Of a stretch of DNA of 64,000 nucleotides, positions 3,688-25,529 are shown piece by piece. The position numbers were made by a program, and so were the translations under genes. The DNA comes from Candidatus Poribacteria bacterium (GTDB lineage: Bacteria; Poribacteria; WGA-4E; WGA-3G). A model generated the notes under the pieces. It was not told the DNA's origin and did no database searches. It worked only from the letters and a program-made list of their open reading frames with translations. Within the stretch, counting starts at the first letter, position 1; every line of letters begins with the position of its first letter. The stretch spans positions 157,958-221,957 of the forward strand of contig PYJD01000031.1 of NCBI GenBank assembly GCA_003635315.1. The letters run 5' to 3'.

Positions 3688-3783
3688 ATTGCAAAGTAGG
3701 ATGATTTCGTCAATGGATTATGATTTTTCTGATAACTTAAAAATTGCTACACTCTATTGGTTAACAGTATCTTATAGTGAACA

Positions 3784-3913: not shown

Positions 3914-3998
3914 ATGTAACACCATTATAAATCAATGGGACTACATTGAAGATATATCAATATCTCAAGGAAGTATAGGGGTATTGGATGGCGTCTAT

Positions 3999-6275: not shown

Positions 6276-6357
6276 GGTTGATATCCTTCAGCTAATGGTG
6301 TTTCTGACATGATTCTTCTATACATCCTATATTCAATTAACTTTATACTATAGTGTA

Positions 6358-6488
6358 CTTGAAAATAATAACACAAAATCCCTGTAGGAGCGATCTCCGA
6401 ATCGCGACTTAACTCAGTGATAGTCGGGAATCGGAGTTCCCTCCTACATCTAAAAATGTTCCATCAATTCAAGAGTTTACTATAAACA
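6358..6488. repeat. ~130-bp hairpin repeat (copy B). Acts as a terminator on the minus strand for gene 6532..7266.
   Basis: Near-identical to 3784..3913; sits 47 bp beyond the 3' end of the minus-strand gene 6532..7266. Confidence 0.7.
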
Positions 6489-6531
6489 CAACAAGAGATA
6501 GATGTATACGAATTAGCATAAATAGTAAGAG

Positions 6532-7266
6532 TTAGAGTTTAAATCGAAAGATAGTCAGATACTTATGATGTAATTTCTCTGTTAAAGGTTCGCTATTGTA
6601 ACTAATTGAGCCACTTAATCGCAACCCTAATCGAGTCGTTAAGTTAAACGTGAGTGCCGGTTCTGCTAAATACTGAAAGTTCTGAAAACCAACTTGTGGT
6701 GTGAATTTCATGGATATATTCAATTTTCTCCAACCAATTGATGAAAATGCTAACCACCTGAAGGATGTAGGATCAAATTTTCTGACAGTTAGGTCTTTAT
6801 AGGGTTGGATATTTTCAAGAAAATAACCTAATCCTCCAGATATACGCAACACCCCTTTTTCATAAATACCCGGACGAATATATCCACCAATCTGTACTGT
6901 CAGCGCAGTTCCTTGGGTTATATTGCGTTCTAAATCCGTGAATACTTCAACCCCGTATGTACGTATACGCATCCCACCTTGGATACGTCCTTTCGCAATT
7001 TCTGTAATTACACCTTCTTTACCTGAACCACGAGAACCAAATACACCCGCCCATCCATTGATTGTCTTAAAGGGTACTACTGCTGTTAGCGTGATGGTCT
7101 GTAAAGCATCATCACCTGCAATTCCTAAATCTAATGTCTTAGCATCATGTGGCAAATCTGCAAACTGGCTATACGCTGGAATTTCAATGATAATTAAGAA
7201 TATTGACAGAAGTATGATTCTAATTATAATCTTATTCATATCATATAAATGACATCCAACTATCAT
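6532..7266 (-). CDS. Secreted/outer-membrane protein, paralog 1 (possibly a MipA/OmpV-like beta-barrel)
   Basis: Signal peptide (IILLSIFLIIIEIPAYS/QF), alternating beta-strand pattern, 244 aa. About 45% identical to the neighbouring 7596..8348 product. Confidence 0.4.
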   Translation of the reverse strand: MIVGCHLYDMNKIIIRIILLSIFLIIIEIPAYSQFADLPHDAKTLDLGIAGDDALQTITLTAVVPFKTINGWAGVFGSRGSGKEGVITEIAKGRIQGGMRIRTYGVEVFTDLERNITQGTALTVQIGGYIRPGIYEKGVLRISGGLGYFLENIQPYKDLTVRKFDPTSFRWLAFSSIGWRKLNISMKFTPQVGFQNFQYLAEPALTFNLTTRLGLRLSGSISYNSEPLTEKLHHKYLTIFRFKL

Positions 7267-7472
7267 TATTCAATCTTGATTGAGTAAATAAAATACTTAG
7301 TTAAACGCACATATATTACCCATTATAATAGTAAATGTCAAGGAATTACACACAAAATATAACAATATACAATTATATTTTAACGTGTATTCGGTTTAAT
7401 ATTCATTTAATCTTATTTTTTTATACTATGATTTTACCCTTTCCCACCCCCGGTAGGTTCACAAGATTCGTC

Positions 7473-7525
7473 ATTAAATTAAAAAGGGTTTAGTATTTCA
7501 AAACTGTGAAATACCAAACCCTTTT
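7473..7525. terminator. Bidirectional rho-independent terminator
   Basis: AAAAAGGGTTTaGTATTTCA-aaactg-TGAAATACcAAACCCTTTTTAT, about 70 bp past the 3' end of minus-strand gene 7596..8348. Confidence 0.75.
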
Positions 7526-7595
7526 TATGACTCATTTCAAACTAACAATGAATACACATAATAAATTATAAAATATAATATCTATTCTGTATACA

Positions 7596-8348
7596 CTACA
7601 GGGTTATACGTAATATAGAAAGATATACATACTGTAAATTATCTGTTAAGGGTTCACTGTTATAGGTAACAGTTCCACTAACGCGAAAACCGAAACGATT
7701 TGAAAGATCAATGGTTACAGCTGGTTCCGCACAAATCCTGTAGTTTTTAAACCCTATTTCAGGAGTGAAGGTTAACTCAGTATTGATCTTATTCCAGTCA
7801 ACTGTAGAAGTAACTAACCATCTAAATGCCGTAGGGTCAAATTGTCTAACTTTTAACTCTTCAAATGGTCGTATAGTTTCTAAAAAATAACCGAAATTTG
7901 CTGAAATACTCAGTGAACCCTTTTTATACTCACCAGGTTGAATAGTTCCACCAACTTGAGCAGTTAAGGCACTTCCATCCAACATATTACGTTCAAAATA
8001 TGAAAAAGCCTCTACTTCAACTACTTTAACGTCGATGATACTTTCAACATGTAACTTTACTATTTCTGAAAGAACTCCTTCTTCACCTGAGGAACGAGAT
8101 CCGAAAAAACCTGCCCAACCATTGATGTTTGTAACAGGCACAACAGCGGTTAGGGTTACAGTCCTATGAGTTGAATTACCAGTAAGTCCAATATCAACTG
8201 TTTTTTGATCCTCAGGTAAATCAGTAAATTGACCATAAACTGGTAACGATATAAAAAACAAGGATAAAACAATAAGTGTAAGTAGACATTTTCTTAAAAC
8301 ACAATTAAATCGGGATAACCCCACCTGTGTTTCTGTTAAGTAATGCAT
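7596..8348 (-). CDS. Secreted/outer-membrane protein, paralog 2
   Basis: Signal peptide; shared motifs LTAVVP..INGWAG.FGSR.SG.EGV, FDPT.FRWL, SG...YNSEPLT with 6532..7266. Confidence 0.4.
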   Translation of the reverse strand: MHYLTETQVGLSRFNCVLRKCLLTLIVLSLFFISLPVYGQFTDLPEDQKTVDIGLTGNSTHRTVTLTAVVPVTNINGWAGFFGSRSSGEEGVLSEIVKLHVESIIDVKVVEVEAFSYFERNMLDGSALTAQVGGTIQPGEYKKGSLSISANFGYFLETIRPFEELKVRQFDPTAFRWLVTSTVDWNKINTELTFTPEIGFKNYRICAEPAVTIDLSNRFGFRVSGTVTYNSEPLTDNLQYVYLSILRITL

Positions 8349-8816
8349 ACAGGGGGTTTGGAAACTTACGGGTTAGTCCTGAACTATAAAATAATCGAAT
8401 ATGGATTCGATTAAAACACCTGCCAAACAGTGAGTAGCCATACCTCCAAGTATCACCAACAAAATCCAATTGTATATTTGTAATGTAGGATTTAGATTAT
8501 TCAGAAATATCTCAACATCTATGACGATATTCTGTTTATTTATTGTTGTATAACAACGTAATTCTGTATTTATGGTTTCTACATTATAAAATAATTCTTA
8601 TAGAATTTTTTATTCCCCATATTTTGTAAATCACATAAAAAATGATTGTGATATTGTACTCTCTAAATTCTAAAATTTCAAATTGAAATGAAGGTTTTTT
8701 TGCGTTTTTTTTTTTGAATATAATGTCTTTGTCTTGGAAATTCTATTCACTTGTCACAATCACAATTCCATGATAGACTGATGCTGTTTGAGAACTGAAT
8801 TTTGAGGTACAAATTC

Positions 8817-9746
8817 ATGGAATATAATGAACTCGCAACAAAGAAACCATTTATAGTAAACAAGAATCTTGGAAGTGCTTTAGAAGTAGAACCAGAAGAA
8901 TTAACAACTACTAATGCTGATGGATTACCTATAATCCTTCCAACTCAAAAACAAAAATACGATTTCGATCGTAAAGGATGGCTTCTTGTTCCAGATGTCT
9001 TATCCGAACAAGAAATATCTGAAATACAAACATTCTGTAAAGAAATTAAAAATAATGATCCAGATATCACTGAACCCCAAATTTGTGGTTTAGAAGGTCC
9101 AATGCAGAAATTGGCGGATCATCCCGTTGTTGTTGGATTATTAAATGAATTTCTGGCATATCCCCCAACCGCAAGTGAGGAATGCTACGGGTTTCGTCTT
9201 GAAAAATCCGATGTCCAATTGGGGTTTAAAAAGGTGGAGAAACACAAAGACAAAGAAAATAACGCTGGGAATGGTCTGTTTCGTTTGCCAGGTGATTCAC
9301 ATATTTATCGATGTGTTCCCGGAAGAGCATGGAGCGGTTTGACGAGGATTATTTGGGAATTATCTGAAGTCAATACAAAGTCAAACGATATACGATTCAT
9401 TACTGCAAGCCACAAGAGTGCCTATGTTGTTCCACAAACCATTCACAATAACAATACACAGATGTGGGAAACCTATGATTGTCCACCAGGATCATTAATT
9501 CTTCTAACTGAATCCATTACTCAGAAGTATGTTACGATATCCACTGATCAGAATGTAGATAGATTACGGATTACAAATTTATATAATACTATTGCAAGTC
9601 GTTGGTGCAATTGGTTACCATCCCCTAAACTTATCGATTCCATGCCACCGAAACGTCAATCCCTCTTTAGAGAGACTTTTGCTGGGGGTAATGTCGTCAA
9701 AGGACATTTTGGAGATCGTACTTCACCATATCCAATAAATATCTAA
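8817..9746 (+). CDS. PhyH-like / double-stranded beta-helix family protein, paralog 1 (function unknown)
   Basis: N-terminus resembles PhyH-family proteins (LPTQKQKYDFDRKGWLLVPDVLSEQEISEIQ). Track ORF uses a TTG at 8802, so the ATG at 8817 is chosen. The canonical HxD...H iron triad is not obvious. Confidence 0.35.
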   Translation: MEYNELATKKPFIVNKNLGSALEVEPEELTTTNADGLPIILPTQKQKYDFDRKGWLLVPDVLSEQEISEIQTFCKEIKNNDPDITEPQICGLEGPMQKLADHPVVVGLLNEFLAYPPTASEECYGFRLEKSDVQLGFKKVEKHKDKENNAGNGLFRLPGDSHIYRCVPGRAWSGLTRIIWELSEVNTKSNDIRFITASHKSAYVVPQTIHNNNTQMWETYDCPPGSLILLTESITQKYVTISTDQNVDRLRITNLYNTIASRWCNWLPSPKLIDSMPPKRQSLFRETFAGGNVVKGHFGDRTSPYPINI

Positions 9747-9758
9747 GTTAGGTTCAGT

Positions 9759-10637
9759 ATGAATACACAGAAAAACAACATTACCCATACCGGTAAAGAA
9801 GTTATCATCCCACCTGAAACGTTTGAATTACCTACACACAACTCTGATGGTGATCCTATTCCTGCATTGACACCAGAGCAGATCTATGAATTTGATACAC
9901 ATGGATGGATACTATATCCAGAAGTCATTACAGGCGTTGAACTCAAAGAAATGCAGGAGTTCTCATTTCGGTTACATCACGATGCAGATTCGATCCCTGA
10001 ACATGAAAGGAATACACTTGGTGGTCCTCTTCAGAAATTGATTGACCACCCACTTGTGGTATCTCTACTTAATGAATTCACCGCACACCCCTCTGTTACA
10101 AATTCACACTGTTACGGATATACAGTAGAAAGTACAAATCTGTTTTATAGAACAGAGGGTATGGGAAGATTCGGTCCACATAACGGGAACGGTATGCTTC
10201 GATTTCCTGGAGATGTCCACTACTATAACGCTTTTCCCGGTAAAGGATATAGTCCACATACCCGTATTGTATGGGAACTGAATGAAGTAAAGAAAGGACA
10301 AGGTGGTACGCTACTGGTTACAGGCAGCCATAAATCCGTATACACCGCTCCTGCAGAAATCCAAAACCCAAAATCAGACATCTGGAGTACTTACGGCTGT
10401 CCGCCAGGTTCACTCCTATTTTTTACTGAGGCATTAACGCATAGTGCAACACCTTGGACAAATACTGACAACGATAGAATGGCTATTTTCAACCTGTATA
10501 GTCCAGTTGATAGTGGCTATGCAAGAGTGTACCAACCCCATCCCAAACTTCTCGAATCTATGACAGAGATGAGACGCACTCTCTTTAGAAGTCGCTTTGT
10601 TGTTGACAATAGTGATAACACAAGACAAGATGATTGA
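9759..10637 (+). CDS. PhyH-like / double-stranded beta-helix family protein, paralog 2
   Basis: Paralog of 8817..9746 (LTPEQIYEFDTHGWILYPEVITGVELKEMQEF; GPLQKLIDHPLVVSLLNEF; CPPGSLLFFTE). Confidence 0.35.
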   Translation: MNTQKNNITHTGKEVIIPPETFELPTHNSDGDPIPALTPEQIYEFDTHGWILYPEVITGVELKEMQEFSFRLHHDADSIPEHERNTLGGPLQKLIDHPLVVSLLNEFTAHPSVTNSHCYGYTVESTNLFYRTEGMGRFGPHNGNGMLRFPGDVHYYNAFPGKGYSPHTRIVWELNEVKKGQGGTLLVTGSHKSVYTAPAEIQNPKSDIWSTYGCPPGSLLFFTEALTHSATPWTNTDNDRMAIFNLYSPVDSGYARVYQPHPKLLESMTEMRRTLFRSRFVVDNSDNTRQDD

Positions 10638-10654
10638 ATAGAAAGGAGCAACAT

Positions 10655-12028
10655 TTGCCAAATCAACCTAACATTTTATGGATATATGGAGAAGACTTAT
10701 CACCTGATTTAGGATGTTATAATACACCTGCTGTAAACACACCAAACATTGATAGGATTGCTGATGAAGGCACACGTTTCCCTAACGCCTTTGTAACATG
10801 CCCTGTTTGTTCCCCAAGTAGATCGGCATTAATTACTGGAACCTACCAAACCCATTTTGACGCACATAATCATCGGAGTAATCGAGATAAACCTTTGCGC
10901 GAAGATATGAAATTGATCACGGATTGTTTCCGTGAAGCAGGTTACTTCACATGCAATAGTCCGGGTCCACCATACAATCGTAAAGGAAAAACTGATTTCA
11001 ATTTCCATAGAGATGATCCATTCGACGGAATTGATTGGCGTGAACGTCCTGATGATCAACCCTTTTATGCTCAAATTAACATTCCTGATACACATAGAGT
11101 CTTTAAACCTGATCCTGATCGACCAATAAACCCAGAGGATGTAGAATTACCTCCATATTATCCTGATCATCCACTCATCCGTAAGGATTGGGCACTCTAT
11201 CTTGAAAGTATCCAGATCTTAGATAAGAAGATAGGACGAATCCTCAACCGTTTAGACGAAGAGGGCTTAACTGAAAATACAATACTCTTCTTTATGAGTG
11301 ACCATGGACGCGCCCACATACGTTGTAAGCAATTTCTCTATGATGGTGGTATCCATATTCCATTGATTGTAAGATTTCCCGGACAGGTTCAGGCTGGAGA
11401 AGTTAATGAAAATTTGGTGAGTGGTGTGGACTTCATGCCTACTTCACTTTCTATGGCTGGAATTGATATACCGGATTATGTGCAAGGAGAAGTATTCCTC
11501 GGTGAAAAGGCGACTGAACGTGAAGCAATCTTTGCGGCACGAGACAGATGCGATGGCACCGATGACAGGATAAGATGTGTTCGGACAGACAATTATAAAC
11601 TCATACGAAATTATCATCCTGAACTACCCTATATGCAGTTCAATGGATACAAGAAACTTCAATATCCACTTTGGACATTAATCAATATTCTGAATGAAAA
11701 GGGTGAACTTACACCAGCACAGCAACATTTCTGTCAAGATTCCCGTCCCTATGAAGAGTTATACGATCTACAATCTGATCCTTATGAAACAAAAAATCTA
11801 ATTGATGATGAAAAGTATGCAACAGTTAGAAAGGATCTGATAGGAAAATTGGATACTTGGATTGAATCTACTGGAGATATGGGAGTCACACCTGAATCTG
11901 ATGAAGTTAAAACTTATTGGGATAACCACATGTTGCAAGGTTATAATGACAGAATGGAGGATCGCGGTCTATCACCAGATATCAGTGATACGGACTATGT
12001 GAAATGGTGGGAAAACAAACTCCTGTAG
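10655..12028 (+). CDS. Cys-type sulfatase (arylsulfatase family), no signal peptide
   Basis: Sulfatase signature CPVCSPSRSALITG (C-x-P-x-R); metal-binding region FMSDHG. Start ambiguous: TTG at 10634 or, after an AAGGAG ribosome-binding site, TTG at 10655. Confidence 0.8.
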   Translation: MPNQPNILWIYGEDLSPDLGCYNTPAVNTPNIDRIADEGTRFPNAFVTCPVCSPSRSALITGTYQTHFDAHNHRSNRDKPLREDMKLITDCFREAGYFTCNSPGPPYNRKGKTDFNFHRDDPFDGIDWRERPDDQPFYAQINIPDTHRVFKPDPDRPINPEDVELPPYYPDHPLIRKDWALYLESIQILDKKIGRILNRLDEEGLTENTILFFMSDHGRAHIRCKQFLYDGGIHIPLIVRFPGQVQAGEVNENLVSGVDFMPTSLSMAGIDIPDYVQGEVFLGEKATEREAIFAARDRCDGTDDRIRCVRTDNYKLIRNYHPELPYMQFNGYKKLQYPLWTLINILNEKGELTPAQQHFCQDSRPYEELYDLQSDPYETKNLIDDEKYATVRKDLIGKLDTWIESTGDMGVTPESDEVKTYWDNHMLQGYNDRMEDRGLSPDISDTDYVKWWENKLL

Positions 12029-12034
12029 GATGAT

Positions 12035-12420
12035 ATACCACTACCCTCTTGTAGGTCGGGTTGAGGAACGAAACCCATAGGTGTCAACTTAAGAAAATCA
12101 TTCCATTTTATGAGTGTCTTCAGTCCCATAGGGACGATATGTTTATAGAAAAAATGTCAATACAACATTTTGAGTTCCGTAGGAACGGAATGTATATACC
12201 ACAACCCAATTATAAACATTTCGTTCCTACGGAACTCAAGAAAGTTCAGGATAACGGCTTGCTATAAACATATCGTCCCTACAGGACTAAAGAGGATGAC
12301 ATCAACGTCTGTCTATAAACACTCCGTCCTTACCAAATCAACACCAAATGCGCATTTGGCATTTATCGGGACTGAGGCGGCTTTCTGTATTAGAAAATCC
12401 TTAAGTTGACACCTATAGTG
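12035..12420. mobile_element. MITE-like element of family B. It has a leader-like segment, 19-bp perfect terminal inverted repeats (ATAGGTGTCAACTTAAG) and internal GTCCCnnnGGGAC-GGAATGTTTATAG hairpin units in both orientations.
   Basis: CATAGGTGTCAACTTAAG at 12067 and CTTAAGTTGACACCTATAG at 12402 are reverse complements. The interior carries five hairpin units, and the track ORFs inside are spurious. Confidence 0.65.
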
Positions 12421-12467
12421 AGACAGACAAGAATACCGTAAATATCATTCACTTAACCGTTCCTATG

Positions 12468-13478
12468 TCACCTGCCTGTATATGCCTTTTTGATTTCAGA
12501 CCAACGTACCGATTTCTTACCAATAGGTGAAACTGACAGTGCGTCTTCATGCCAATCCGCCCCACTCCCCTCAGTTAAATGTGTGTATAGGTTTGAGGTA
12601 AGGTCGTATTTATAAATCTGTGTTGGATGATGTGGGTTTCGATCTCTTTCATATTCAAATGCACTGAACAGCACGGATCGTCCCTCATCCATCCAAGCAA
12701 GAGACGTGCAATACCAATTATTCGGGATATCCAATCTCTGCATGCCACCTTCATCTACATCTTGAATGAGATAATTAAAATGTCCTATCCCCATACGATT
12801 GATAACTAAATCATTAATTTTTATCTCTACAGGCATCAATTCTAATTCACAATACAGTATCTTTTTACCATCCGGTGACCAGCGTGGATAGGAATGATAC
12901 CGTACATTTCTTTCAGGATTGGGTTTTGTCCAGGCATGTGGATTGTCTCCGTTCGCATCCATCATCCAAAGGTGTTTGTCAATAAATTGATGGTCATCAT
13001 TGACATATATAATCTGTTTGCCATCTGGTGACCAGTCAAGTTGATTTATATGTGATCTGGATATTTGTCTAACTTCCCCTGTTTCAAGGTCTACCACATA
13101 CTGTGCGGATAGTCTTCGGGTGAAAGCGATTTTCTTTCCATCAGAAGAAAACGCCAAGTCAATAATTCCAAAATCAGTGTCCGAGACCTGTTGAACACCA
13201 GTACCATCAGCATGCATCATATAGACATTCGTGTCCCTTCTTTGGTCTGGTAACGATGGGTTACGAATAAATGCAATCCGTTTCCCATTAGGTGACCAAT
13301 AAGGAATCTTGTCATAATATGGCGTATCGGTAATTTGTCTCATATTCTCACCGTCGTCGTCCATGACATAGATGTTGCTATTCTCGTTTTGGTAGAGACT
13401 AAAGACGATTTTCGCGTTTGAATTTTCTATAAAAAGAACTAATAGACCTACCACCAAGATTGTCCGTAGTGAAGACAT
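12468..13478 (-). CDS. Periplasmic PD40/WD40-like beta-propeller protein (TolB-like)
   Basis: Signal peptide MSSLRTILVVGLLVLF; repeated PD40 motifs (YWSPNGKRIAF, AFSSDGKKIAF, DWSPDGKQIIY, RWSPDGKKILY). The 5' extension to 13805 in the track is an open frame through a repeat, so the start is placed at ATG 13478. Confidence 0.7.
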   Translation of the reverse strand: MSSLRTILVVGLLVLFIENSNAKIVFSLYQNENSNIYVMDDDGENMRQITDTPYYDKIPYWSPNGKRIAFIRNPSLPDQRRDTNVYMMHADGTGVQQVSDTDFGIIDLAFSSDGKKIAFTRRLSAQYVVDLETGEVRQISRSHINQLDWSPDGKQIIYVNDDHQFIDKHLWMMDANGDNPHAWTKPNPERNVRYHSYPRWSPDGKKILYCELELMPVEIKINDLVINRMGIGHFNYLIQDVDEGGMQRLDIPNNWYCTSLAWMDEGRSVLFSAFEYERDRNPHHPTQIYKYDLTSNLYTHLTEGSGADWHEDALSVSPIGKKSVRWSEIKKAYTGR

Positions 13479-13624
13479 CAGATTACTCCTATGGTCTGTT
13501 ATTGGTAGAAATATAGCAATTCGTATGCCAAACCTAATGTGATGGATTGTTATGTTGTTGCACAATTTAGGGCAAATGTAGAGGTTAATGCACTTTATGG
13601 TGCAAGATAATTGTGCGATTTCTA

Positions 13625-13662
13625 TCCCTCTTGTAGGTCGGGTAGAGGAACGAAACCCACCG
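13625..13662. repeat. Solo copy of the family-B leader segment (CCTCTTGTAGGTCGGGTaGAGGAACGAAACCC)
   Basis: Matches 12035..12066 and, reverse-complemented, 58640..58680. A further fragment lies at ~18458..18488. Confidence 0.6.
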
Positions 13663-13983
13663 AATTCCATACGCGGATTCGACGTTGATTTGGTATAAGA
13701 ACTATGACTTTTTTCATAGTTACTATAAAATCTGTAATCAAGCAATTTCTCGAAAACACTTACTATGACAGGCTTTACAGATAAATTATAGACAACTTGT
13801 TTCATAGTTACTATGAAAATTCATAATAATCAAGTATGTTTTTACATATGGGTTAAACCAATACACTATACACGCAAAAAGTTAAAATCAAACTCTTACA
13901 AACCCGTATTAGATATATCCCTTGCATCATTATCCCATCCTATCTATAATAATAGTATCTCAAAGGGAATTCCCAAATAAGAA

Positions 13984-16900
13984 ATGCCTTACGTTAACAT
14001 CAAAACAACCCACAAACCTATTAAGACCTATTATGACGAACTGGATAATTACACCCAACTCGGTGCGAAAAACGAAGGCACTGTCCGTTCCGCATTCCAA
14101 AATCTCCTTCAACACTATTGTGGTAAATGCAATCTAACTCTTCTCTGCGAAAGAACAAAATATATCGCTGAAAATAGACGTATAACACCCGATGGTGAAG
14201 TCGTAGATTCATACGGAATACCACACGGATATTGGGAAGCAAAAGACACACAAGACGACCTACATACAGAAGCAACCAAAAAATTCGCTGCCGGATACCC
14301 ATCCAAAAACATTGTCTTACAATCCCCCACACATGCACTTCTATATCAACACGATGAGTTGGTGCATGATCTTAACCTCACAGATCCAAAAAACCTTGTA
14401 CAAGTCCTTGAATCCTTTTTCGCATATCAAGCAGAAAATATATCTGCATGGCATACAGCAGTCGCAGAATTTAAGGAGATGGTACCTGAATTAGGTAATA
14501 AATTAAAAGAATTAATAGAAAACGAACGTCAGAACAACTCACACTTTCATGATGCATTCTCTAAATTCCATCAACAATGCCAAGCATCGATTAATCCTAA
14601 CCTCTCTATCCCTGCTGTAGAAGAAATGCTCATTCAACACCTGTTAACGGAACGGCTTTTCAGAACTGTCTTCGACAATCCAGACTTCACAAGAAGAAAC
14701 ATAATCGCTCGGGAAATTGAGAATGTCATAGATGTGTTAACAGAACGTTCGCTCAATAGATCCGAATTCCTCCGACCTTTGGAACGTTTTTACACTACCA
14801 TCGAAAAAACTGCTAATACCATAACCGATTTCTCACAGAAACAGAGTTTTTTAAATACGGTTTATGAACAGTTTTTTCAAGGTTTCTCAGTCAAAGTCGC
14901 AGATACACATGGGATTGTCTACACACCACAACCGATAGTCGATTTTATGGTGAAAAGTGTAGAACATATCCTTCAGACAGAATTCGGTCGTTCCATAGCA
15001 GATGAAGGTGTCCATATTATTGACCCATTTGTTGGGACGGGCAATTTCATTGTTCGCATCATGCAGGAACTTGATCCCATTGCATTAGAACGTAAATATA
15101 CTGCAAATCCTCCCGAACTCCAGTGTAATGAGGTAATGCTGCTACCCTATTACATCGCAAATATGAATATAGAACAACAGTTTTACACCAAGACCAACAG
15201 ATATGCATCCTATGAAGGTCTCTGCCTTGTAGATACATTCGAGTTAGCAGAGGATAAACAGATTCCACTATTAGCACCAGCAAACACACAACGTGTAGAA
15301 AAACAGAAGCAGACACCTATGTTTGTTGTAATTGGTAATCCACCTTACAATGTTGGACAAGTCAATGAGAACGATAATAACAAGAATCGTAAGTATGAGA
15401 CTATGGATAAACGGGTCGCAGAAACTTATGTAAAAGATTCAAAAGCAACTCTTAGAAATAAATTATCTGATCCTTACGTAAAAGCAATTCGATGGGCATC
15501 AGATAGGATTGGGAAAGAAGGAATTGTTGCTTTTGTAACTAATAATGGATTTCTGGATGGTATAGCTTTTGATGGTATGCGTAAACATCTCGCTCAAGAT
15601 TTTAATATAATATACCATATTGATTTTAAGGGTAATGCTCGAACCTCTGGAGAACGACGGAGACAAGAAGGGGGTAATATCTTTGATGATCAAATCCGGG
15701 TTGGTATCGGGATTAGTTTTTTTATAAAGAAAGGCAATTCTACTTCTAAATCAACAAAGGTCTTTATTCATACAGTGGATGAATATTTAAAAGCAAATGA
15801 GAAACAGTCATTATTAACTCAATTCACAGATATTTCAGCTGTTTCATTCAATAAGATCAAGATTGATGAAAAGTATACTTGGCTCACGGAGGGATTGCAT
15901 TCAGAGTTTTATGACTACATTCCTATCGGTATCAAATCTTCAAAAAACAATAAAGAACCTAAAAGTACAATTTTTAATATTTATTCCTTAGGAGTAGCTA
16001 CAAATAGGGATTACCTTGCCTATTCTTATAATTTATCCCTATTAGAGGATAAGGTAAAAACATTTATAGAAATCTATAATACATCATTAGATAGAAGAAA
16101 AAGGCAAGATAAAAAACACTCTATAGATGATTCAATAGATACTAATGATCCACGCATTAAATGGACGCGACAAGTTAAGAGATCATTAAATAAAATGGAA
16201 TCAAACAATTTTGAAGTGACCCACATACGTAGAGCATTATATCGTCCGTTTAATAGACAATATCTCTATTTTGATAATTTTTGGAATGAGGAACGATATC
16301 AACAATATAGAATTTATCCTACCAAAGATACAGAATTAGAAAACATGGCAATCTGTGTTAGCGGAATAGGAGGGAAAAAACCGTTCCAAACATTGGCAGT
16401 TGGTATGATACCAGATCTTCATTTCACAGGTGATTCACAATGCTTTCCTTTTTATACATACGACGAGGATGGCTCAAACAGACGAGAAAACATTACGGAT
16501 TGGGCATTAAATGCATTTCAAACTCAATACAAAGACAACAGTATTACCAAATGGGACATCTTCCACTATAATTACGGTCTATTACATCATCCCGAATATC
16601 GTGAGAAATACCAAGCCAACCTAAAACGGGACCTACCACACATCCCTTTCGTTAAAGATTTCTGGGGATTTACAAAGGCAGGGGCACGATTAGCTGAAAT
16701 ACATGTCAACTACGAATCACAACCAGAATACGAATATGTTATACTCATTCAAAACCCCGATGTTCCTCTCAATTGGCGGGTAGAAAAAATGAAACTCTCC
16801 AAAGACAAAACTTCCCTTGTCTATAACAACTTCCTAACAATTGACGGTATACCACTAAAAGCCCTCGACTATCGACTCGGTACACGTTCAGCATTGGAAT

Positions 16901-17079
16901 GGATAATCAACCAATATTGTGTCAAAACAGACAAACGGAGCGGTATCGTCAACGACCCCAACCGTGAAGATGATCCACAATACATCGTCAGGTTAATCCG
17001 TCAAGTCATCACAATCAGTTTAGAGACTGTAGACATTGTAGAAGAATTACCTAAATTAGACATTCTCAATATTGAATAA
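13984..17079 (+). CDS. Type IIL (MmeI-like) single-chain restriction-modification enzyme with endonuclease, N6-adenine methyltransferase and target-recognition domains
   Basis: N-terminal PD-ExK motif D-x9-EAK (DSYGIPHGYWEAKD) as in MmeI. Methyltransferase motif I IIDPFVGTGNF and motif IV VIGNPPYNVGQ. 1031 aa with a large C-terminal target-recognition domain. No separate methyltransferase gene adjacent. Confidence 0.8.
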   Translation: MPYVNIKTTHKPIKTYYDELDNYTQLGAKNEGTVRSAFQNLLQHYCGKCNLTLLCERTKYIAENRRITPDGEVVDSYGIPHGYWEAKDTQDDLHTEATKKFAAGYPSKNIVLQSPTHALLYQHDELVHDLNLTDPKNLVQVLESFFAYQAENISAWHTAVAEFKEMVPELGNKLKELIENERQNNSHFHDAFSKFHQQCQASINPNLSIPAVEEMLIQHLLTERLFRTVFDNPDFTRRNIIAREIENVIDVLTERSLNRSEFLRPLERFYTTIEKTANTITDFSQKQSFLNTVYEQFFQGFSVKVADTHGIVYTPQPIVDFMVKSVEHILQTEFGRSIADEGVHIIDPFVGTGNFIVRIMQELDPIALERKYTANPPELQCNEVMLLPYYIANMNIEQQFYTKTNRYASYEGLCLVDTFELAEDKQIPLLAPANTQRVEKQKQTPMFVVIGNPPYNVGQVNENDNNKNRKYETMDKRVAETYVKDSKATLRNKLSDPYVKAIRWASDRIGKEGIVAFVTNNGFLDGIAFDGMRKHLAQDFNIIYHIDFKGNARTSGERRRQEGGNIFDDQIRVGIGISFFIKKGNSTSKSTKVFIHTVDEYLKANEKQSLLTQFTDISAVSFNKIKIDEKYTWLTEGLHSEFYDYIPIGIKSSKNNKEPKSTIFNIYSLGVATNRDYLAYSYNLSLLEDKVKTFIEIYNTSLDRRKRQDKKHSIDDSIDTNDPRIKWTRQVKRSLNKMESNNFEVTHIRRALYRPFNRQYLYFDNFWNEERYQQYRIYPTKDTELENMAICVSGIGGKKPFQTLAVGMIPDLHFTGDSQCFPFYTYDEDGSNRRENITDWALNAFQTQYKDNSITKWDIFHYNYGLLHHPEYREKYQANLKRDLPHIPFVKDFWGFTKAGARLAEIHVNYESQPEYEYVILIQNPDVPLNWRVEKMKLSKDKTSLVYNNFLTIDGIPLKALDYRLGTRSALEWIINQYCVKTDKRSGIVNDPNREDDPQYIVRLIRQVITISLETVDIVEELPKLDILNIE

Positions 17080-17211
17080 TTAGATGATTCTATATCAATT
17101 CACACTAAAAACAATTACTTACCAAAAACTAATTCTGATTAACTTGACAACATACAACCCAACAATATATAATCAATAGAAGACATTCTTGGATAGGTTA
17201 TAGCACTTTAC

Positions 17212-18105
17212 ATGGCACAATACGATGAAATCGTAAAACATCTGATGGATAGGTTCGCAGGTGATTTCGCAAGCTTATCTTTTGATACACCCGATGTTGA
17301 AGTTATAGAGACACTTGACACAGAACAACAAACAGTAAAAGTACATCGTAACGACATGACATTTAAAGTGTTATGGAATAATGAAACAGTTATACTACAT
17401 ATAGAAGTACAAACCCAAGATAGTAAAGATAAACCGATGCCGCTACGTGTACTCTCGTATGCTGCTGAACTCTTACTACGTTATGAACTTCCAGTCTATT
17501 CAGTCGTACTATATCTAAGTTCAAATGCCGGACAAACCGATCCAGGTGGCTATAGTTACGGAAATGATCAGTTTGGATTACAACATAGATATCAGGTGAT
17601 TCGGTTGGTAGATTTAGAGGGTGAATCATATTTAGAATCAGCATCTGTAGGATTATTGCCATTCACACCATTAATGAGACCACCTTTAAACTTGAACACG
17701 GAAGCATGGTTGCAGAAATGTGTTGAAACAACAGAATCCGCACCTGTTGACCCACAAACGCGGAGCACACTGCTGTATGCGTTAACCACCTTGGGTAGTC
17801 TAAACTATGATCCTAATCTTTTTCAGAAACTAATATCGGAGGAAATGATGCAAGAATCTCCTTTTTACGAAATCATCATGCAGCGCGGCATTGAACGGGG
17901 CATTGTACAAGGTTCACTTCAAGTCTGCATAAAGAACATACTATCTGTTCTTACAGAACGTTTTCCGTCGAGTGATACGACACCCGTAGCAGAAATCCTT
18001 GAATCCATTCAAGACCTTGATCGTTTATCAGAGCTGCTTCGTTTAGCAGTCCAAACATCCAGCGTGGATACATTTCTACAAGAAATAGATACATCGGAAG
18101 AATAA
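17212..18105 (+). CDS. Rpn/YhgA-like PD-(D/E)xK nuclease (recombination-promoting nuclease / transposase_31 family) with DUF4351-like C-terminus
   Basis: Motifs FKVLWNN...ILHIEVQTQDSKD (hiEfQ signature) and a C-terminal helical LLRLAVQTSSVDTFLQEI region; 297 aa. Confidence 0.7.
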   Translation: MAQYDEIVKHLMDRFAGDFASLSFDTPDVEVIETLDTEQQTVKVHRNDMTFKVLWNNETVILHIEVQTQDSKDKPMPLRVLSYAAELLLRYELPVYSVVLYLSSNAGQTDPGGYSYGNDQFGLQHRYQVIRLVDLEGESYLESASVGLLPFTPLMRPPLNLNTEAWLQKCVETTESAPVDPQTRSTLLYALTTLGSLNYDPNLFQKLISEEMMQESPFYEIIMQRGIERGIVQGSLQVCIKNILSVLTERFPSSDTTPVAEILESIQDLDRLSELLRLAVQTSSVDTFLQEIDTSEE

Positions 18106-18187
18106 AAAAACACCAGATTTCCAATGGTGAGATGTTTTTCAATCACGACGAATCCGTCCCAATCCCTCTTCTCCGCGGAATCCGCGT

Positions 18188-18291
18188 AATACCATTTCCA
18201 ATTAAAAAACTCTCTTTTTGTAGCACAAACTTTCAGTTTTTGTCTTCCCTGTTTCATTCCTAACAGTCGGTAATGAGATAATCATAAATAG
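18188..18291 (+). mobile_element. MITE-A copy (terminal inverted repeat ATACCATTTCTAATT / TAGAAATGGTAT; core hairpin CACAAACT-ttc-AGTTTGTG)
   Basis: Nested inverted repeats; partial copies follow at 18296..18350 and 18430..18460. The track ORF 18009..18257 (peptide GRQKLKVCATK) is an artefact of this repeat. Confidence 0.65.
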
Positions 18292-18549
18292 AAATAGGTA
18301 TTCCTAATACCATTTCTACATGAATATGTCACTTCTTGTAGCATAAACTACCAGACCAAATGCTGATTACATATTTTTTTAATAAAATTGAAAATTAAAT
18401 GAAGAAAATAACTATATCTAACAACTAACATTACCAAAAGCTACTTTTTTAGCATAAACTTCGAGAAGGTAGGGAAGGAACGAACCCACCATCCACAGTT
18501 CCACCTTTCCAATCTTCCAATTCCGTACTTTTATGGGAAGTATATAATT

Positions 18550-18968
18550 AGAGAATAAATGATGAAAATCTATAAAAACGATCCTAAATACCAATACCCT
18601 CTTTATGTCAAAAAAACAGCTTTAATATGCAGTTTGAAAAACACAAAATCAGCAAGGAAAGAAAAACACAAAATCACACTTTTTGGAAATTCTTATAAAG
18701 TCAATTCAAAATGGAGTGAACTCAGTCTATGACAGAGGTTAGAGGGGTAATTTACACTAATTTCAATCCTACAAAATGTAGGAAAAAGTGTAACTTTTTT
18801 CACTTTTTACACACTTTTTCACCACAGGGAAAAATCAACATTTTCACGATTTATTATATGGGAATTTAGGATTAAAGGTCTGTTTTTGACCCCTATTCGT
18901 TCGTCTGGATATTAGGATTAAATGTTCAATTTACGAATATGAGTTTTAATACAATTTCTAAATGAAAA
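18550..18968 (+). repeat. ~420-bp non-coding element, copy 1. About 80-85% identical to the reverse complement of 59455..59883.
   Basis: Colinear match across the whole length (AGAGAATAAATGATGAaAAtCTATAAAAACGATCCTAAATACCA ... GGGAATTTAGGATTAAAGGTCTGTTTTTG ... TATTAGGATTAAA). Contains hairpin + AAAAGTGTAACTTTTTTCAC motif. Confidence 0.7.
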
Positions 18969-19015
18969 TGTCTCTCTTTGTAGCATAAACTGATAGTTTG
19001 TGCCACATTACGCTT
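18935..19015 (+). mobile_element. MITE-A variant copy (core CATAAACT-gat-AGTTTGTG)
   Basis: Same architecture as other MITE-A copies, with compensatory substitutions in the stem. Confidence 0.5.
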
Positions 19016-19252
19016 CAGTTCTACTGTAACTATTGTAAAAATTAAGGCAGGATATCTAAAACTGAATAGTCCTGCAAATATATTAAAAGTACTTGTCAAA
19101 ATAGAGGAATTATACAATACTATATTGTAGAATCTTTAAGAATCTCAAATGAATAATTTAAAATACAAAAATAATACATACAAAAGAACATCACATTACT
19201 TACCGAAATCGTTTAGAAAAAATATCAATCAAGCTAAACGAAGGAGAATAAA

Positions 19253-22210
19253 TTGAAAGTCTTAAAACTTATTCTATTTTTCTCATTTATCTTTTCTGTT
19301 CCAGTTTCAATAGCCTATGAATACCAGTGGATAAATAATGAAGAAATCGAAGGGGCAGACAGCGTTACAGAGGTTAAGCCTCTCCAAGTCATTTTTCTTG
19401 ATGAACCCATTGAGGTGGTAACACACAGTGCCTCTTTGCGTTTGATGCAAAAGTATTCTGTATACCTTGGCACAGAATGGAGTCCGGGGAACGCATATCG
19501 ACTGCTTAAAACTTTCGAATCCATACCCCAACTGACAAACAATCCTTATCATGTTGAACCCACAGTACCTTATTCCTTATGGAAACTGACCCGAAAACAC
19601 ATTCAGGGTGACATCGAAATAGATGTTAGAAATAGACAGACTATTGTTACTGTTTCAGAGGGTGCGTTTACCTATACTGAACCGAGATTGGCAGAGATTG
19701 AAGGTGTGGAAGGACGCTACTTTTCGAAACGACTACATCACGCAGTTGTTCGGTTCGTAACAGATGACGGTAGAGACAGACAAGCAATTGAGTACATATT
19801 GAACAAACGTTATGGGATCAGTTTAAATGTACCCGACTACACAGAATTGACGCGACACACAACAGGTGAGCACGCTGCGCGTTTCACAACCTTTAAAGAC
19901 GAAGAGGTGTTGGATCTCGTCAATATGATTGAGGAATTCCCAACTGGCATGCATAAAATTACGGGACTGAATTACATCATTCGACGTTTAGATGGAACAC
20001 CCCACCCACTTTATCCCACTGCTCCCGCAGTCGCATGGACACAGAGCGGTTACATTGAGTTCATGGAATCCGCATTTCTGGAACAAGGAGCAGACTATAT
20101 CCACCGTTTAATCCTTCATGAAAAGGCACACTTTTTGTGGGAATACCTATTTGATGATCAACTCAAACAGGATTGGATTGAGCTTGGAGGTTGGTATGAA
20201 AATCCAGACGATGTGGATGGGTGGTCTACGACAAAACAGCTTGAGTTTGTTTCCGCGTATGCACACGGCAAGAATCCTAATGAGGATATGGCAGAGAGTA
20301 TCAGTCATTACATCGTTCGACCTGACATACTCCGGTCACGCGCACCAGACAAATATCAATTCATCCAAGATCGGATTATGCACGGCACACGTTATATATC
20401 ACGCATACGCGAAGATCTAACCTTCCAGGTCTACAACCTTTATCCTGATGTCGTGTATCCAGGACGAATTATACGGGTGAATATAGATGTTAGTGGTGAA
20501 CCGGAAGCAGATAAACGTATAGTGATTGAAATAGAACTACACCAGACAGGAGATTTAGACACAGCACAAGCATCAAGTGTCAGAATATTTAGTGACAAAG
20601 GCACATACTTTGACATCTGGCTGTATCCAATAAAAAACGGTATATATACGGATACAGGACATATTCTGCGAGGTGAGGTAGTTTTATCGCGCTATGCTGC
20701 ACACGGATATTGGGGTCCAGATGCGATTACTCTCAAAGATGCTCAAGGAAATGAACGACACCAATCACAAACCGATTTTGGATGGAAACTCTATATCAAC
20801 AGTCCGTTAGCTGACACGGAGGCACCGATTTATGTAAAAAACTCTATGCGTCTTTCCTTGTCAGATGATATGGAAAATGGAAGGCCACTGCAAATATTGA
20901 CGGCTCAGTGGAAGATCATTGAGCAAAATGATATTGAATCCATTTCAGCACGAGCAAACGACGAAAGTGATGAGACTTATTCACGACATTCGTTTAACTT
21001 TGGAACATACGATAAACAGACCGGTTTAGCGACTGTTAAGCTTATTATCCCTGATTACTTCCAAACCGGGATATATTCACTGAACCATATAAGTATGAAA
21101 GATATCGCATTAAACACACGCGGCGTCTACTTTACTAAACCGCATTCCAGCATAAGGGACGAAGAAGAAATCCTTGATGAGAAACCTGCCACCATCCATA
21201 TTAAAACAACAAACCCTGATAGCAATCCCCCTATTCTTGATTTGAACTGGATTACTGTAACAGCAGAACCGACAAATCCTGATGAACCAAACGGGGAAAC
21301 ACGAGTTGATATTACCTTCAGAATTAAGGATGACATCAGTGGATATAGTAAGACATATATTGATTTACGTGATCCACATGGCGTGGTTCACACCTTTTCA
21401 CATCTTCATAGCGATTATTACAAAACCTATTTCACAGAGGATCCATTTGACTTTAAAATCTACAACAAAACGATTATTCTTCCTGTTGGTAGCGTCCCGG
21501 GTACATGGGGTATTTCTCAGATGACAGTTCAAGATAAGGCACAAAACATCCTACGCGCCGACTTCACAGAAATTGTCCGTTTTGTTGTGAATGATATGTC
21601 TGTCATATCTCAATACGACGTCAATGGTGATGGAAAGATAGACATACTGGATTTAATAATGGTAGCAAATGCATTTGGAACGACTGAGAATGATAGTGCG
21701 GATGTCAACGGTGATGGTGCTGTCAATATACAAGATTTAGTAGGAGTTGCCAGTCATATCGGTGAAGGATCTTTAGAGGCACCGACTACACACAATCTAA
21801 CTGCCAACCAAATACAAAGTTGGATCACACAAGCAACACAAGTCGATGACGGTAGTCCTGCTTTCCAGTCAGGTATTCGTGTGTTACAAGACCTCTTACT
21901 CGAACTGCAACCAGAAAAGACTGAACTGTTGCCAAATTATCCTAACCCGTTTAACCCGGAGACATGGATTCCCTATAAATTGGCAAATCCAAGTGATATA
22001 ATAATAAATATCTATGATTCGAGTGGCAGCCTTGTGCGTCAACTTGACTTGGGTCATCAGTCAACCGGTATATACCAGATTCGTAGTCGTGCTGCATATT
22101 GGGATGGTCGGAATAAGCTTGGGGAACGGGTGGCGAATGGAATCTATTTTTATCAACTGCAGACGGATAGTGTTTCACCACCACTTAGGAAAATGGTTAT
22201 TCTGAAATAA
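19253..22210 (+). CDS. Secreted multidomain zinc metalloprotease (HExxH) with dockerin-type repeats and a T9SS (Por) C-terminal sorting domain
   Basis: Signal peptide; HEKAHFLWEY (HExxH); dockerin repeats DVNGDGKIDILDLIMV and DVNGDGAVNIQDLVGV; C-terminus LLPNYPNPFNPETWIPYKL...NGIYFYQL...KMVILK typical of a T9SS sorting domain. Confidence 0.75.
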   Translation: MKVLKLILFFSFIFSVPVSIAYEYQWINNEEIEGADSVTEVKPLQVIFLDEPIEVVTHSASLRLMQKYSVYLGTEWSPGNAYRLLKTFESIPQLTNNPYHVEPTVPYSLWKLTRKHIQGDIEIDVRNRQTIVTVSEGAFTYTEPRLAEIEGVEGRYFSKRLHHAVVRFVTDDGRDRQAIEYILNKRYGISLNVPDYTELTRHTTGEHAARFTTFKDEEVLDLVNMIEEFPTGMHKITGLNYIIRRLDGTPHPLYPTAPAVAWTQSGYIEFMESAFLEQGADYIHRLILHEKAHFLWEYLFDDQLKQDWIELGGWYENPDDVDGWSTTKQLEFVSAYAHGKNPNEDMAESISHYIVRPDILRSRAPDKYQFIQDRIMHGTRYISRIREDLTFQVYNLYPDVVYPGRIIRVNIDVSGEPEADKRIVIEIELHQTGDLDTAQASSVRIFSDKGTYFDIWLYPIKNGIYTDTGHILRGEVVLSRYAAHGYWGPDAITLKDAQGNERHQSQTDFGWKLYINSPLADTEAPIYVKNSMRLSLSDDMENGRPLQILTAQWKIIEQNDIESISARANDESDETYSRHSFNFGTYDKQTGLATVKLIIPDYFQTGIYSLNHISMKDIALNTRGVYFTKPHSSIRDEEEILDEKPATIHIKTTNPDSNPPILDLNWITVTAEPTNPDEPNGETRVDITFRIKDDISGYSKTYIDLRDPHGVVHTFSHLHSDYYKTYFTEDPFDFKIYNKTIILPVGSVPGTWGISQMTVQDKAQNILRADFTEIVRFVVNDMSVISQYDVNGDGKIDILDLIMVANAFGTTENDSADVNGDGAVNIQDLVGVASHIGEGSLEAPTTHNLTANQIQSWITQATQVDDGSPAFQSGIRVLQDLLLELQPEKTELLPNYPNPFNPETWIPYKLANPSDIIINIYDSSGSLVRQLDLGHQSTGIYQIRSRAAYWDGRNKLGERVANGIYFYQLQTDSVSPPLRKMVILK

Positions 22211-22260
22211 ACTACCCAAGTAATTACACGCTTTACACCTAACCATTCAACCAACCCGGT

Positions 22261-22287
22261 AGGAGCGGTTTGGAACCGCTCCGAATA
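22261..22287 (+). terminator. Hairpin GGAGCGGTTTGGAACCGCTCC downstream of the protease gene (putative terminator; weak U-tract)
   Basis: Perfect 7-bp GC-rich stem 50 bp past the stop. Confidence 0.4.
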
Positions 22288-22331
22288 TAATATAACATGC
22301 GTATTTATGACAACTATTCATTTAGAAATGG

Positions 22332-22772
22332 TTGATATGGAGAAATCTAATGTATAAATTATTTCTACCCATTATGTTGTTGAGTATACTTATCATGGGT
22401 TGTATACCAGATTCACCATTAGATCCTGATGAAACCTCCAATCCGACTTACATTACAACACAATTTATCATGCAAGGTGCTAAAGTAGTTTCAAACGATG
22501 GAACTGACACATTTCTTGGAGAAATCACAGGAAAATATAATAGCAACTCTATATTCAACAATTATGGTATATACGGGAGTAAATATAGTGTAACGTCTAT
22601 TTGGAATCCATATAGCATATATGGAAGTAAATATAGTATATATAGTGCCTTTAATGACTACACAATTACCCCTCCACAGATAATAAAAAACAATACAAGA
22701 ATCGGTTATCTCACAACCAACAAACATTTACATGGAGGAGTAAGCCCCAACCTTCTAAAGTCACTTTTCTAA
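22332..22772 (+). CDS. Small lipoprotein with Y/S-rich repeats (hypothetical)
   Basis: Lipobox LIMGC; repeats YGIYGSKYSVTSIWNPYSIYGSKYSIYS. Confidence 0.45.
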   Translation: MIWRNLMYKLFLPIMLLSILIMGCIPDSPLDPDETSNPTYITTQFIMQGAKVVSNDGTDTFLGEITGKYNSNSIFNNYGIYGSKYSVTSIWNPYSIYGSKYSIYSAFNDYTITPPQIIKNNTRIGYLTTNKHLHGGVSPNLLKSLF

Positions 22773-24427: not shown

Positions 24428-24629
24428 CATCTTTAGAATCTACATGTTTATCCTACCGTGTACCACATTTTCACTTGAATTATCAGACCAATATGGACAA
24501 TGGTAGAACATAATGATAATTTTACCATACCGATATCAATTATACCATAGGGTTATTTAGTTTTCTAAATTTCCACTACTTTTTATTTATTCCGTAATTG
24601 TATATATTGTTATCTTATATAGGTCTTTA

Positions 24630-24980
24630 GTCCCATCGGGACGGAATGTTTATAGCAAAAGTGTATACACCATAGGGAGTTCCATCAGGACGGAATGTTT
24701 ATAGAAAAAATGCGAACCCCTATCTTGAGTTCCGACATATGCTATATGCTTATTTGACGTTGATTAGGTAGGGACGGAATGTCTATAGAAGAACGTATTC
24801 ACACAGTCTTGAGTCCCATCGGGACGGAATGTTTATAGAAAAATGCGAACCCCTATCTTGAGTTCCGTAGGAACGGAATGTTTATAAAAGAACGTATTCA
24901 CACAGTCTTGAGTCCCATCGGGACGGAATGTCTATAGAAAAATGCGAACCCTATCTTGAGTTCTGTATGAACAGCATAAT
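24630..24980 (+). repeat. Family-B tandem array. It carries about 7 units of a ~26-bp hairpin repeat (GTCCCATCGGGACGGAATGTTTATAG) separated by ~23-bp segments that themselves recur in alternation. CRISPR-like but not CRISPR.
   Basis: Stem variants GTCCC/GGGAC and GTTCC/GGAAC (compensatory). 'Spacers' AAAAATGCGAACCCCTATCTTGA and AAGAACGTATTCACACAGTCTTGA each occur 3 times. Confidence 0.7.
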
Positions 24981-25529
24981 CAAAAAACATATCGTCACGG
25001 GTGGGTATAAACTTTGAGTAAATAACAATAACGGAAGCCCCTTAAAAATATGACATTTTCATCAACTATTCATGAAATCCTACAAATCGTTGTAGGTTCT
25101 TCCTATTGAGGATCTAACAAATCATCATATAAGTCAATAAAGTATCGTAAAATATTGTTCTTGACAAATACAACCAAATATGTTTTAATTTTGATTGATG
25201 AGTTACGATGTGCCACAGTTTAGAGGGTTTTTGCATCATTATTACGTTAATTCCCTCCTAATGCTTAACAAAATTTACCACTTTTCTAAGGAAAAATAAA
25301 AACGGGGAGATTTCATAAATAGATATAGGAACGAGTGGATCACATGGCGTAGAAATAACAATTATGATTGTAATGAGGTTGCCATGGGAGCACATGTTGA
25401 CGATGTTTTGAGATCGTTAGTTAGTTCAAACAAACTTAAAAGATTAGGTAATGGATGGGATAGAGTTGTTAGTACTGAAGCAATAAACATAGAAGTACCA
25501 TCGATATTTTAGAACATGATTTCGTAAAG

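Follow-up and report, generated by a model that had tools for sequence, protein, structure and literature searches.

A DrdV-type Type IIL restriction-modification gene and a divergent Rpn-like nuclease gene side by side at a variable cargo slot in a Poribacteria genome

A 64,000-nucleotide stretch of contig PYJD01000031.1 (positions 157,958 to 221,957, forward strand, GenBank assembly GCA_003635315.1) from a Candidatus Poribacteria bacterium of lineage WGA-4E/WGA-3G, here called the window, carries two adjacent genes that lie on the same strand with a 132-nucleotide (nt) gap between them. The upstream open reading frame (ORF), ORF1, encodes a putative restriction-modification (RM) enzyme, and the downstream one, ORF2, a putative Rpn-type nuclease. 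Our analysis indicates, with a probability of about 0.8, that these are two independent defense genes of known types, a DrdV-type RM gene and an Rpn gene with an intragenic antitoxin, and that their adjacency is incidental. The site just 3' of the RM gene would be a cargo slot that holds strain-specific, mostly defense, genes. All coordinates below are window positions, and those of the main features are collected in Table 1.

A scan of the genome collection with ORF2 yielded 57 loci, all of them from Poribacteria, mostly with full 10-kb flanks and in a few cases shortened by contig ends. An ORF1 homolog lies within ±10 kb of the ORF2-family gene in none of these 57 loci. In the reverse direction, an ORF2 homolog was found in none of 39 loci containing ORF1 homologs (27 of them metagenomic, the other 12 surrounding close relatives), even at an E value of 10. 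The pairing is therefore unique to the window genome among everything sampled. An earlier note on this DNA had considered the pair as a defense module and offered co-localization in a hotspot as a fallback; the fallback matches the synteny and cargo data, and the module does not. A functional two-gene module, for instance with the Rpn protein as back-up or effector nuclease of the Type IIL enzyme, would fit the close spacing and common strand of the two genes and the tendency of Rpn genes to occur among defense genes (PMC10400941), but it is largely refuted by the synteny data, which include the closest relative, L094, with an RM protein 90% identical to ORF1 and no Rpn-like gene. Furthermore, ORF2 has a promoter of its own that is conserved among unlinked paralogs, and the unit common to the paralogs starts at 17143, past the RM gene. 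We regard such a module as highly improbable.

Five related loci (L059, L061, L062, L090, and L094) contain the sulfatase gene, the minus-strand PD40 gene, and the RM gene in the same order as the window, with ORF1 homologs that are 75 to 90% identical. The PD40 orthologs occupy the same position in all five and are 336 to 388 amino acids (aa) long; the true start of the PD40 gene in the window is probably near 13478 and not at 13805. In L094, the DNA is collinear with the window from 971 to 17079, ending at the stop codon of the RM gene; L061 is homologous as far as 17089. From about 22335 on, where a 146-aa ORF and a gene for a DAO-family oxidoreductase lie, L059, L061, and L062 again show homology to the window. 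The slot between these points carries different genes in each case. In the window it holds the Rpn-like gene, MITE-like repeats (for miniature inverted-repeat transposable element), and a gene for a 985-aa dockerin protein with a type IX secretion system (T9SS) tail; in L059, a SIR2 protein and a 1348-aa STAND NTPase that matches the PADLOC candidate system PDC-M54A; in L062, a NACHT protein; in L061, a 339-aa protein to which no function was assigned; and in L090 and L094, CoiA_N-like and small ORFs.

At greater phylogenetic depth, in a comparison not anchored on the RM gene, the picture changes: two genomes with a sulfatase of about 80% identity keep the synteny upstream of that gene and lack PD40 and the RM gene after it. 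Among close relatives, then, the PD40-RM pair is stable, and further out it varies. The earlier note had described a single repeat-bounded accessory segment at 12.0 to 19.2 kb. This turns out to be two nested things, a clade-level insertion of PD40 and the RM gene and a strain-level slot that begins at the RM stop codon: the part from 12.0 to 17.08 kb is syntenic in the five close relatives, the variable part is the slot, and the left boundary near 12.0 kb is meaningful at the greater depth. It is conceivable, though in our estimate unlikely, that the 3' end of the RM gene is a recombination hotspot conserved in the clade, that the Rpn-like family, with its recombination-promoting nuclease, helps drive cargo turnover there, and that this family is a lineage-specific, massively expanded toxin-antitoxin defense family of sponge symbionts.

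Both ORFs were present as the earlier note had described them. ORF1 is identical to an NCBI protein named “DNA helicase,” a name that probably stems from its likeness to Type ISP enzymes. In a phmmer search of the PDB, DrdV (7lo5/7lvv, 1029 aa) is a collinear full-length match (E value, 2.6e-211), with residues 15 to 1024 of ORF1 aligned to residues 8 to 1026 of 7lo5_A. The PADLOC model REase_MTase_IIG (PDLC03621, 1024 positions) is matched end to end (E value, 1.2e-201), and Pfam places N6_Mtase (1e-9) and Eco57I (3.4e-7) between the coupler and the large C-terminal recognition region, which had likewise been noted before. Methyltransferase motif I (DPFVGTGNF) lies at residue 347 and motif IV (NPPY) at residues 452 to 455, equivalent to N448/Y451 of DrdV; both had been called from the sequence. 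The nuclease motif EAK occupies residues 85 to 87. Residues E31, D70, E85, K87, and K100 of ORF1 align with E25, D64, E79, K81, and K94 of DrdV, the residues that form its nuclease site (10.1101/2021.01.06.425610), so that the D/E/K residues are kept. Because the active-site residues stand at aligned positions and NPPY and motif I are present, the assignment of ORF1 as a single-chain Type IIL enzyme predicted to modify one strand stands.

DrdV, from Deinococcus wulumuqiensis 479, and ORF1 are of nearly the same length and share the domain order, the five nuclease-site residues, NPPY, and motif I, whereas their hosts belong to different phyla. DrdV is a Type IIL enzyme with CATGNAC as its recognition sequence and with methylation of a single adenine, on one strand; it cleaves 10 and 8 bases downstream, which needs several unmethylated sites joined in dimer-to-tetramer assemblies (10.1101/2021.01.06.425610). 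By homology, the predicted ORF1 polypeptide, with nuclease, helical connector, N6-adenine methyltransferase, and recognition domain in this order, would bind an asymmetric site and, where such sites occur in the host, slowly methylate a single adenine on one strand. Several unmethylated sites, as in foreign DNA, would lead to ORF1 dimers and then trimers or tetramers, in which domain-swapped PD-ExK nucleases would cut a short fixed distance downstream. The target is probably not CATGNAC, given that the recognition cassette has diverged from that of DrdV.

The methyltransferase and recognition domains of DrdV have a common origin with those of Type ISP enzymes (10.1101/2021.01.06.425610), and the coupler, methyltransferase, and recognition domains of ORF1 are homologous to those of LlaGI and LlaBIII (PDB 5ffj and 4xqk). 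In the PDB sequence search these two align with ORF1 only over its residues 189 to 1027 (E values, 1e-148 to 1e-158), starting at residues 582 and 746 of chains that are 1406 to 1578 aa long, compared with 1031 aa for ORF1. ORF1 therefore lacks their ATPase motor. The Pfam scan found no helicase domain in ORF1, and the RecA-like ATPase/translocase that marks Type ISP enzymes, placed between nuclease and coupler, is absent from it. Unlike in Type ISP enzymes, the nuclease is joined straight to the coupler, in the manner of DrdV, and no translocation-collision mechanism would be expected.

Two other identities for ORF1 were weighed. The earlier note had placed it in the MmeI family, the Type IIL prototype, on the strength of its domain architecture and of an exact MmeI spacing in the nuclease motif. 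ORF1 has in common with MmeI a single chain with an N-terminal PD-ExK nuclease, an N6-adenine methyltransferase, and a C-terminal recognition domain, as well as, by prediction, lone-strand modification that needs no separate methyltransferase (PMC2731913); this general part of the claim held. The string D75-x9-E85-A-K87 is literally present, and MmeI uses D70-x9-E80-x-K82 for catalysis (PMC2731913). However, the ORF1 residue that aligns with the metal ligand D64 of DrdV is D70, in “TPDG,” which gives PD-x14-EAK with E31 and K100 completing the site; the MmeI spacing is therefore probably coincidental. The one MmeI domain that Pfam detects in ORF1, MmeI_Mtase, reaches 18.2 bits against a cutoff of 27, and MmeI_N, MmeI_hel, MmeI_TRD, and MmeI_C give no match. 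At an E value of ≤0.01, the PDB search with ORF1 returned DrdV, LlaGI, LlaBIII, and a Type I methyltransferase and no MmeI chain; the ORF1 recognition domain is Type_ISP_C, of a different fold family from that of MmeI. On sequence grounds, ORF1 appears to be Type IIL in function and not a member of the MmeI family, and membership in the strict sense has a next to negligible probability. ORF1 might also be a decayed or methyltransferase-only relic, that is, an orphan methylase kept for regulation, and a housekeeping epigenetic role could explain why its position is kept in at least six related genomes. Against this, the gene is intact, every nuclease active-site residue is conserved, the nuclease domain is 89 to 93% identical among orthologs, and the recognition cassette is diversified as expected for a restriction enzyme under phage-driven selection, which makes a relic very unlikely.

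The cassette in question covers residues 541 to 820 of ORF1. Over this segment, identity to the syntenic orthologs P0275, P0278, and P0279 is 31 to 39%, compared with 84 to 95% in the nuclease, the connector, the methyltransferase core, and the last 210 residues, and at the DNA level blastn homology is lost between 15607 and 16438. In the closest relative, L094, 80 to 87% identity is kept across the segment. Specificity would be housed in this cassette (residues ~541 to 820), which has either been exchanged or diverged between orthologs that are otherwise about 90% identical. Such a pattern is expected for exchange or rapid diversification of a recognition module and predicts different targets in different strains.

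ORF2 is identical to an NCBI protein with locus tag C6497_11710. Its relatives fall into 1620 representative clusters in an exhaustive HMMER search, and ORF2 itself, like its hundreds of relatives in Poribacteria, is labeled “hypothetical” at NCBI. PDB sequence searches with ORF2 alone and with a 32-sequence profile returned nothing useful. An AlphaFold2 model built on 32 homologs (mean pLDDT, 84) shows a PD-(D/E)xK fold in the N-terminal domain, and its C-terminal part matches helical bundles. In alignment A2, which comprises 60 full-length relatives of 23 to 53% identity (phmmer E values, 1e-88 to 1e-16), D5 and D48 are the sole invariant residues, and conservation reaches at least 90% at K9, E65, Q67, R79, and Y83. 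When A2 was aligned with Escherichia coli RpnA by hhalign, D5, D48, E65, Q67, and R79 of ORF2 fell on D11, D63, E82, Q84, and R94 of RpnA; a shallow alignment, A1, was uninformative (probability, 0.4%), and the comparison is interpretable only with the deeper A2. Mutation of these five RpnA residues abolished or altered its in vivo activities (PMC5350276). Among the 60 relatives, 32 match TIGR01784 (“Rpn family recombination-promoting nuclease”), 5 match PF04754, and 8 match DUF4351; one of them, P0240, has both PF04754 (residues 44 to 142, 33 bits) and DUF4351 (residues 226 to 284, 43 bits) above the cutoffs. Because of four independent lines of evidence, the fold, the conserved residues, the RpnA alignment, and the relatives that match curated models, we assign ORF2 to the Rpn/YhgA family, as had been proposed from the sequence alone; the model and alignments point to a divergent member that curated models do not see.

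E. coli RpnA to RpnE and RpnS (PF04754 plus DUF4351) and the ORF2 family share the PD-(D/E)xK fold and the five catalytic positions D, D, E-x-Q, and R. They also share a C-terminal DUF4351-like helical domain with an internal start for a short protein (predicted in ORF2), stand-alone C-terminal genes by full copies, multiple paralogs per genome, and a setting among defense genes. ORF2 differs in that it is too diverged for detection by PF04754, TIGR01784, or DUF4351, and its family forms a clade confined to Poribacteria, in which tandem arrays occur. E. coli RpnS shows variation in a 4-aa repeat.

The promoter of ORF2 is the sole 12/12 match to the consensus within 13500 to 18500, and a perfect promoter precedes 35 of 44 ORF2 paralogs. 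In several family members the promoter stops about 7 nt short of the ATG, a spacing suggestive of leaderless mRNAs. Rpn genes encode a long toxic nuclease and a short C-terminal antitoxin, RpnS, which is either initiated internally or encoded by a DUF4351 gene of its own (PMC10400941). In the ORF2 family, 60 of 61 copies have GGAGG-N5-ATG at M213, and the M213 ATG is invariant (79/79). At codon 210, 73 copies use GAG and not one uses GAA, against a family-wide GAA share of 67% among Glu codons; codon 209 is TCG, ACG, or TTG (Ser, Thr, or Leu), with G as the third base throughout, and the first base of codon 211 is usually G. The constraint at codons 209 to 211 thus appears to act at the nucleotide level. 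Three stand-alone proteins (P0168, P0185, and P0262) begin at the equivalent of M212/M213, the stand-alone size being 86 to 91 aa; genes covering just residues ~205 to 297 directly follow full ORF2-family copies in many loci; and DUF4351 occupies the position of the antitoxin in ORF2 relatives. Elsewhere in the window there is no C-terminal-only mini-gene and no extra copy of ORF2 or ORF1.

By analogy with the E. coli Rpn proteins, full-length ORF2 would be a toxic nonspecific DNA endonuclease transcribed from its own consensus promoter, and the 85-aa protein started at M213 would be its antitoxin. The two would form a one-gene toxin-antitoxin defense of the abortive-infection type.

The ORF2 family is multicopy, with several copies per genome and in places two to five per locus. 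In six loci (L001, L005, L006, L008, L014, and L035), at around 10 to 14 kb in each, we observed tandem arrays of two to five full or partial Rpn-like copies, interleaved with C-terminal-only mini-genes (residues ~205 to 297); L005 has five matches in 4 kb.

This multiplicity could also be read as the mark of a mobile-element transposase (“transposase_31”), in which case the presence of ORF2 after the RM gene would reflect a transposon insertion and not defense; one ORF2 homolog is named “predicted transposase YdaD,” and MITE-like elements adjoin ORF2. However, the homology common to the paralogs spans 17143 to 18108 only, that is, the gene and a leader of about 70 nt that includes the promoter, and it stops at the stop codon with no terminal repeats or common flanks, which argues against a transposon and led us to reject that identity for ORF2. 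Moreover, the Rpn literature holds no evidence of autonomous transposition, and no autonomous transposase of that fold is known (PMC10400941); a toxin-antitoxin arrangement agrees with the conservation of the internal start and with the C-terminal genes that stand alone. A transposase is decidedly unlikely, and we favor the Rpn nuclease with an intragenic antitoxin.

Several points weigh against two independent defense genes of known types. ORF2 itself matches nothing in Pfam, NCBIfam, or PADLOC, even at an E value of 10, and the hhalign match of A2 to the single RpnA sequence is weak (E value, 0.0012; probability, 19%). The codon evidence for the internal start comes from related, non-independent copies, and other Glu positions of the family are strongly skewed too, such as position 296, with GAA in 54 copies and GAG in none. 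For ORF1, what is said of its recognition site, its cut distance, and its modification of a single strand is carried over from DrdV. Finally, the slot in the window also carries a non-defense gene, that of the 985-aa dockerin/T9SS-tail protein, and “defense hotspot” is therefore a tendency and not a rule.

Table 1. Features of the RM-Rpn locus and its surroundings (window positions)
Feature	Position	Strand	Evidence or remark
Sulfatase gene, conserved left anchor	10634..12028	+	92-94% identity in close relatives, about 80% in distant relatives
REP-like (repetitive extragenic palindrome) repeat cluster, family B	12112..12293	.	Palindrome-bearing units, ~50-nt period
PD40/Tricorn-type beta-propeller gene	12468..13478	-	Pfam PD40; syntenic neighbor of RM gene
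ORF1, DrdV-type single-chain Type IIL (IIG) RM enzyme, 1031 aa	13984..17079	+	PDB, PADLOC, and Pfam matches
ORF1 N-terminal PD-ExK nuclease domain, about aa 1-160	13984..14463	+	E31, D70, E85, K87, K100 aligned to DrdV
ORF1 helical connector/coupler, aa 169-282	14488..14829	+	Pfam ISP_coupler, E 1.1e-17
ORF1 gamma-class N6-adenine methyltransferase domain, about aa 289-640	14848..15903	+	Pfam N6_Mtase and Eco57I; motifs
ORF1 hypervariable specificity segment, aa 541-820	15604..16443	+	Drop in ortholog identity; blastn gap
ORF1 Type-ISP-type target recognition domain, aa 663-1003	15970..16992	+	Pfam Type_ISP_C, E 8.9e-98
Variable cargo slot directly 3' of RM gene	17090..22334	.	Homology ends/resumes in relatives
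ORF2 consensus sigma-70-type promoter, TTGACA-18-TATAAT	17144..17173	+	12/12 match
ORF2, divergent Rpn/YhgA-family PD-(D/E)xK nuclease (long, toxin form), 297 aa	17212..18105	+	
Internal Shine-Dalgarno sequence GGAGG	17838..17842	+	5 nt before ATG of M213
Predicted gene-within-gene, 85-aa C-terminal RpnS/DUF4351-like antitoxin from M213	17848..18105	+	
MITE-like element (MITE-A), ~115 nt	18187..18302	.	12-nt terminal inverted repeats ATACCATTTCTA / TAGAAATGGTAT

Further observations concern the surroundings of the RM gene in related genomes. In three Poribacteria genomes, a SIR2_2 gene (~375 to 405 aa) followed by a gene for a STAND/NACHT NTPase of ~1350 aa (PDC-M54A) lies just downstream of a DrdV-type RM gene (L059:13158-18405, L092:14920-20086, and L093:13338-18609), each time with a different upstream context; the SIR2/STAND pair may travel with the RM gene as a defense island. 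A 73%-identical RM homolog lies in a dense defense island (L091:1-17270) with a PLD-helicase, AAA_15 ATPases, GmrSD, a TIR-TPR protein, and an AAA_21 ATPase. L094 has a tandem duplication of the PD40 gene that precedes the RM gene (11525-13570), and the PD40 gene is much less conserved (60 to 73% identity) than the flanking sulfatase (92 to 94%). The 985-aa dockerin/FlgD-Ig/T9SS-tail protein (19253-22210) has a paralogous C-terminal tail at about 26193 to 26280, and its homolog in L061 lies on the DAO gene's other side, pointing to local rearrangement.

The repeats that had been reported on both sides of the pair are real, but they do not bound it as a unit. L061 has family-B repeats at the orthologous intergenic site as well (8265-8412), and PD40 and the RM gene are syntenic; for the close clade we therefore rejected the idea that the left-hand repeats delimit a mobile segment. 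Larger clusters of ~49- to 50-nt palindrome-bearing REP-like units lie at 24585-24990 and 58296-58600, and the family is found in L061 and L062 as well. MITE-A has four full copies in the window (at 18187, 22843, 28480, and, in reverse complement, 54025-54144) and half copies at 18305 and 18947. No tRNA gene or Rfam RNA that could mark an integration site or occupy the 1.1-kb gap after ORF2 was found in the window. A 26- to 34-nt motif, GTAGGTCGGGTWGAGGAACGAAACCC, is present three times (12051-12076, 13633-13658, and, on the minus strand, 58644-58669), where chance would give none; the PD40 gene lies between two direct copies, and two of the three adjoin 50-nt-period repeat clusters. We take this motif to resemble short dispersed repeats known from cyanobacteria. 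A sequence of ~450 nt downstream of ORF2 (18527-18975), with no Rfam match, recurs inverted 40 kb away at 59464-59903 with 77 to 87% identity.

Our findings involve no new mechanism and leave the current understanding of both system types unchanged. What they add is corrected annotation, an Rpn clade of Poribacteria that had not been modeled before, and a set of naturally occurring recognition-cassette variants. ORF1 is better named a DrdV-type Type IIL RM enzyme than “DNA helicase,” and the “hypothetical” ORF2 relatives in Poribacteria can be named divergent Rpn nucleases with a predicted intragenic antitoxin. The orthologs, about 90% identical outside the 280-residue cassette, constitute a natural dataset on specificity change in Type IIL/ISP-type enzymes, and the locus shows in clear form how a slot for defense cargo can be anchored beside a conserved RM gene, here in a sponge symbiont that is uncultivated.

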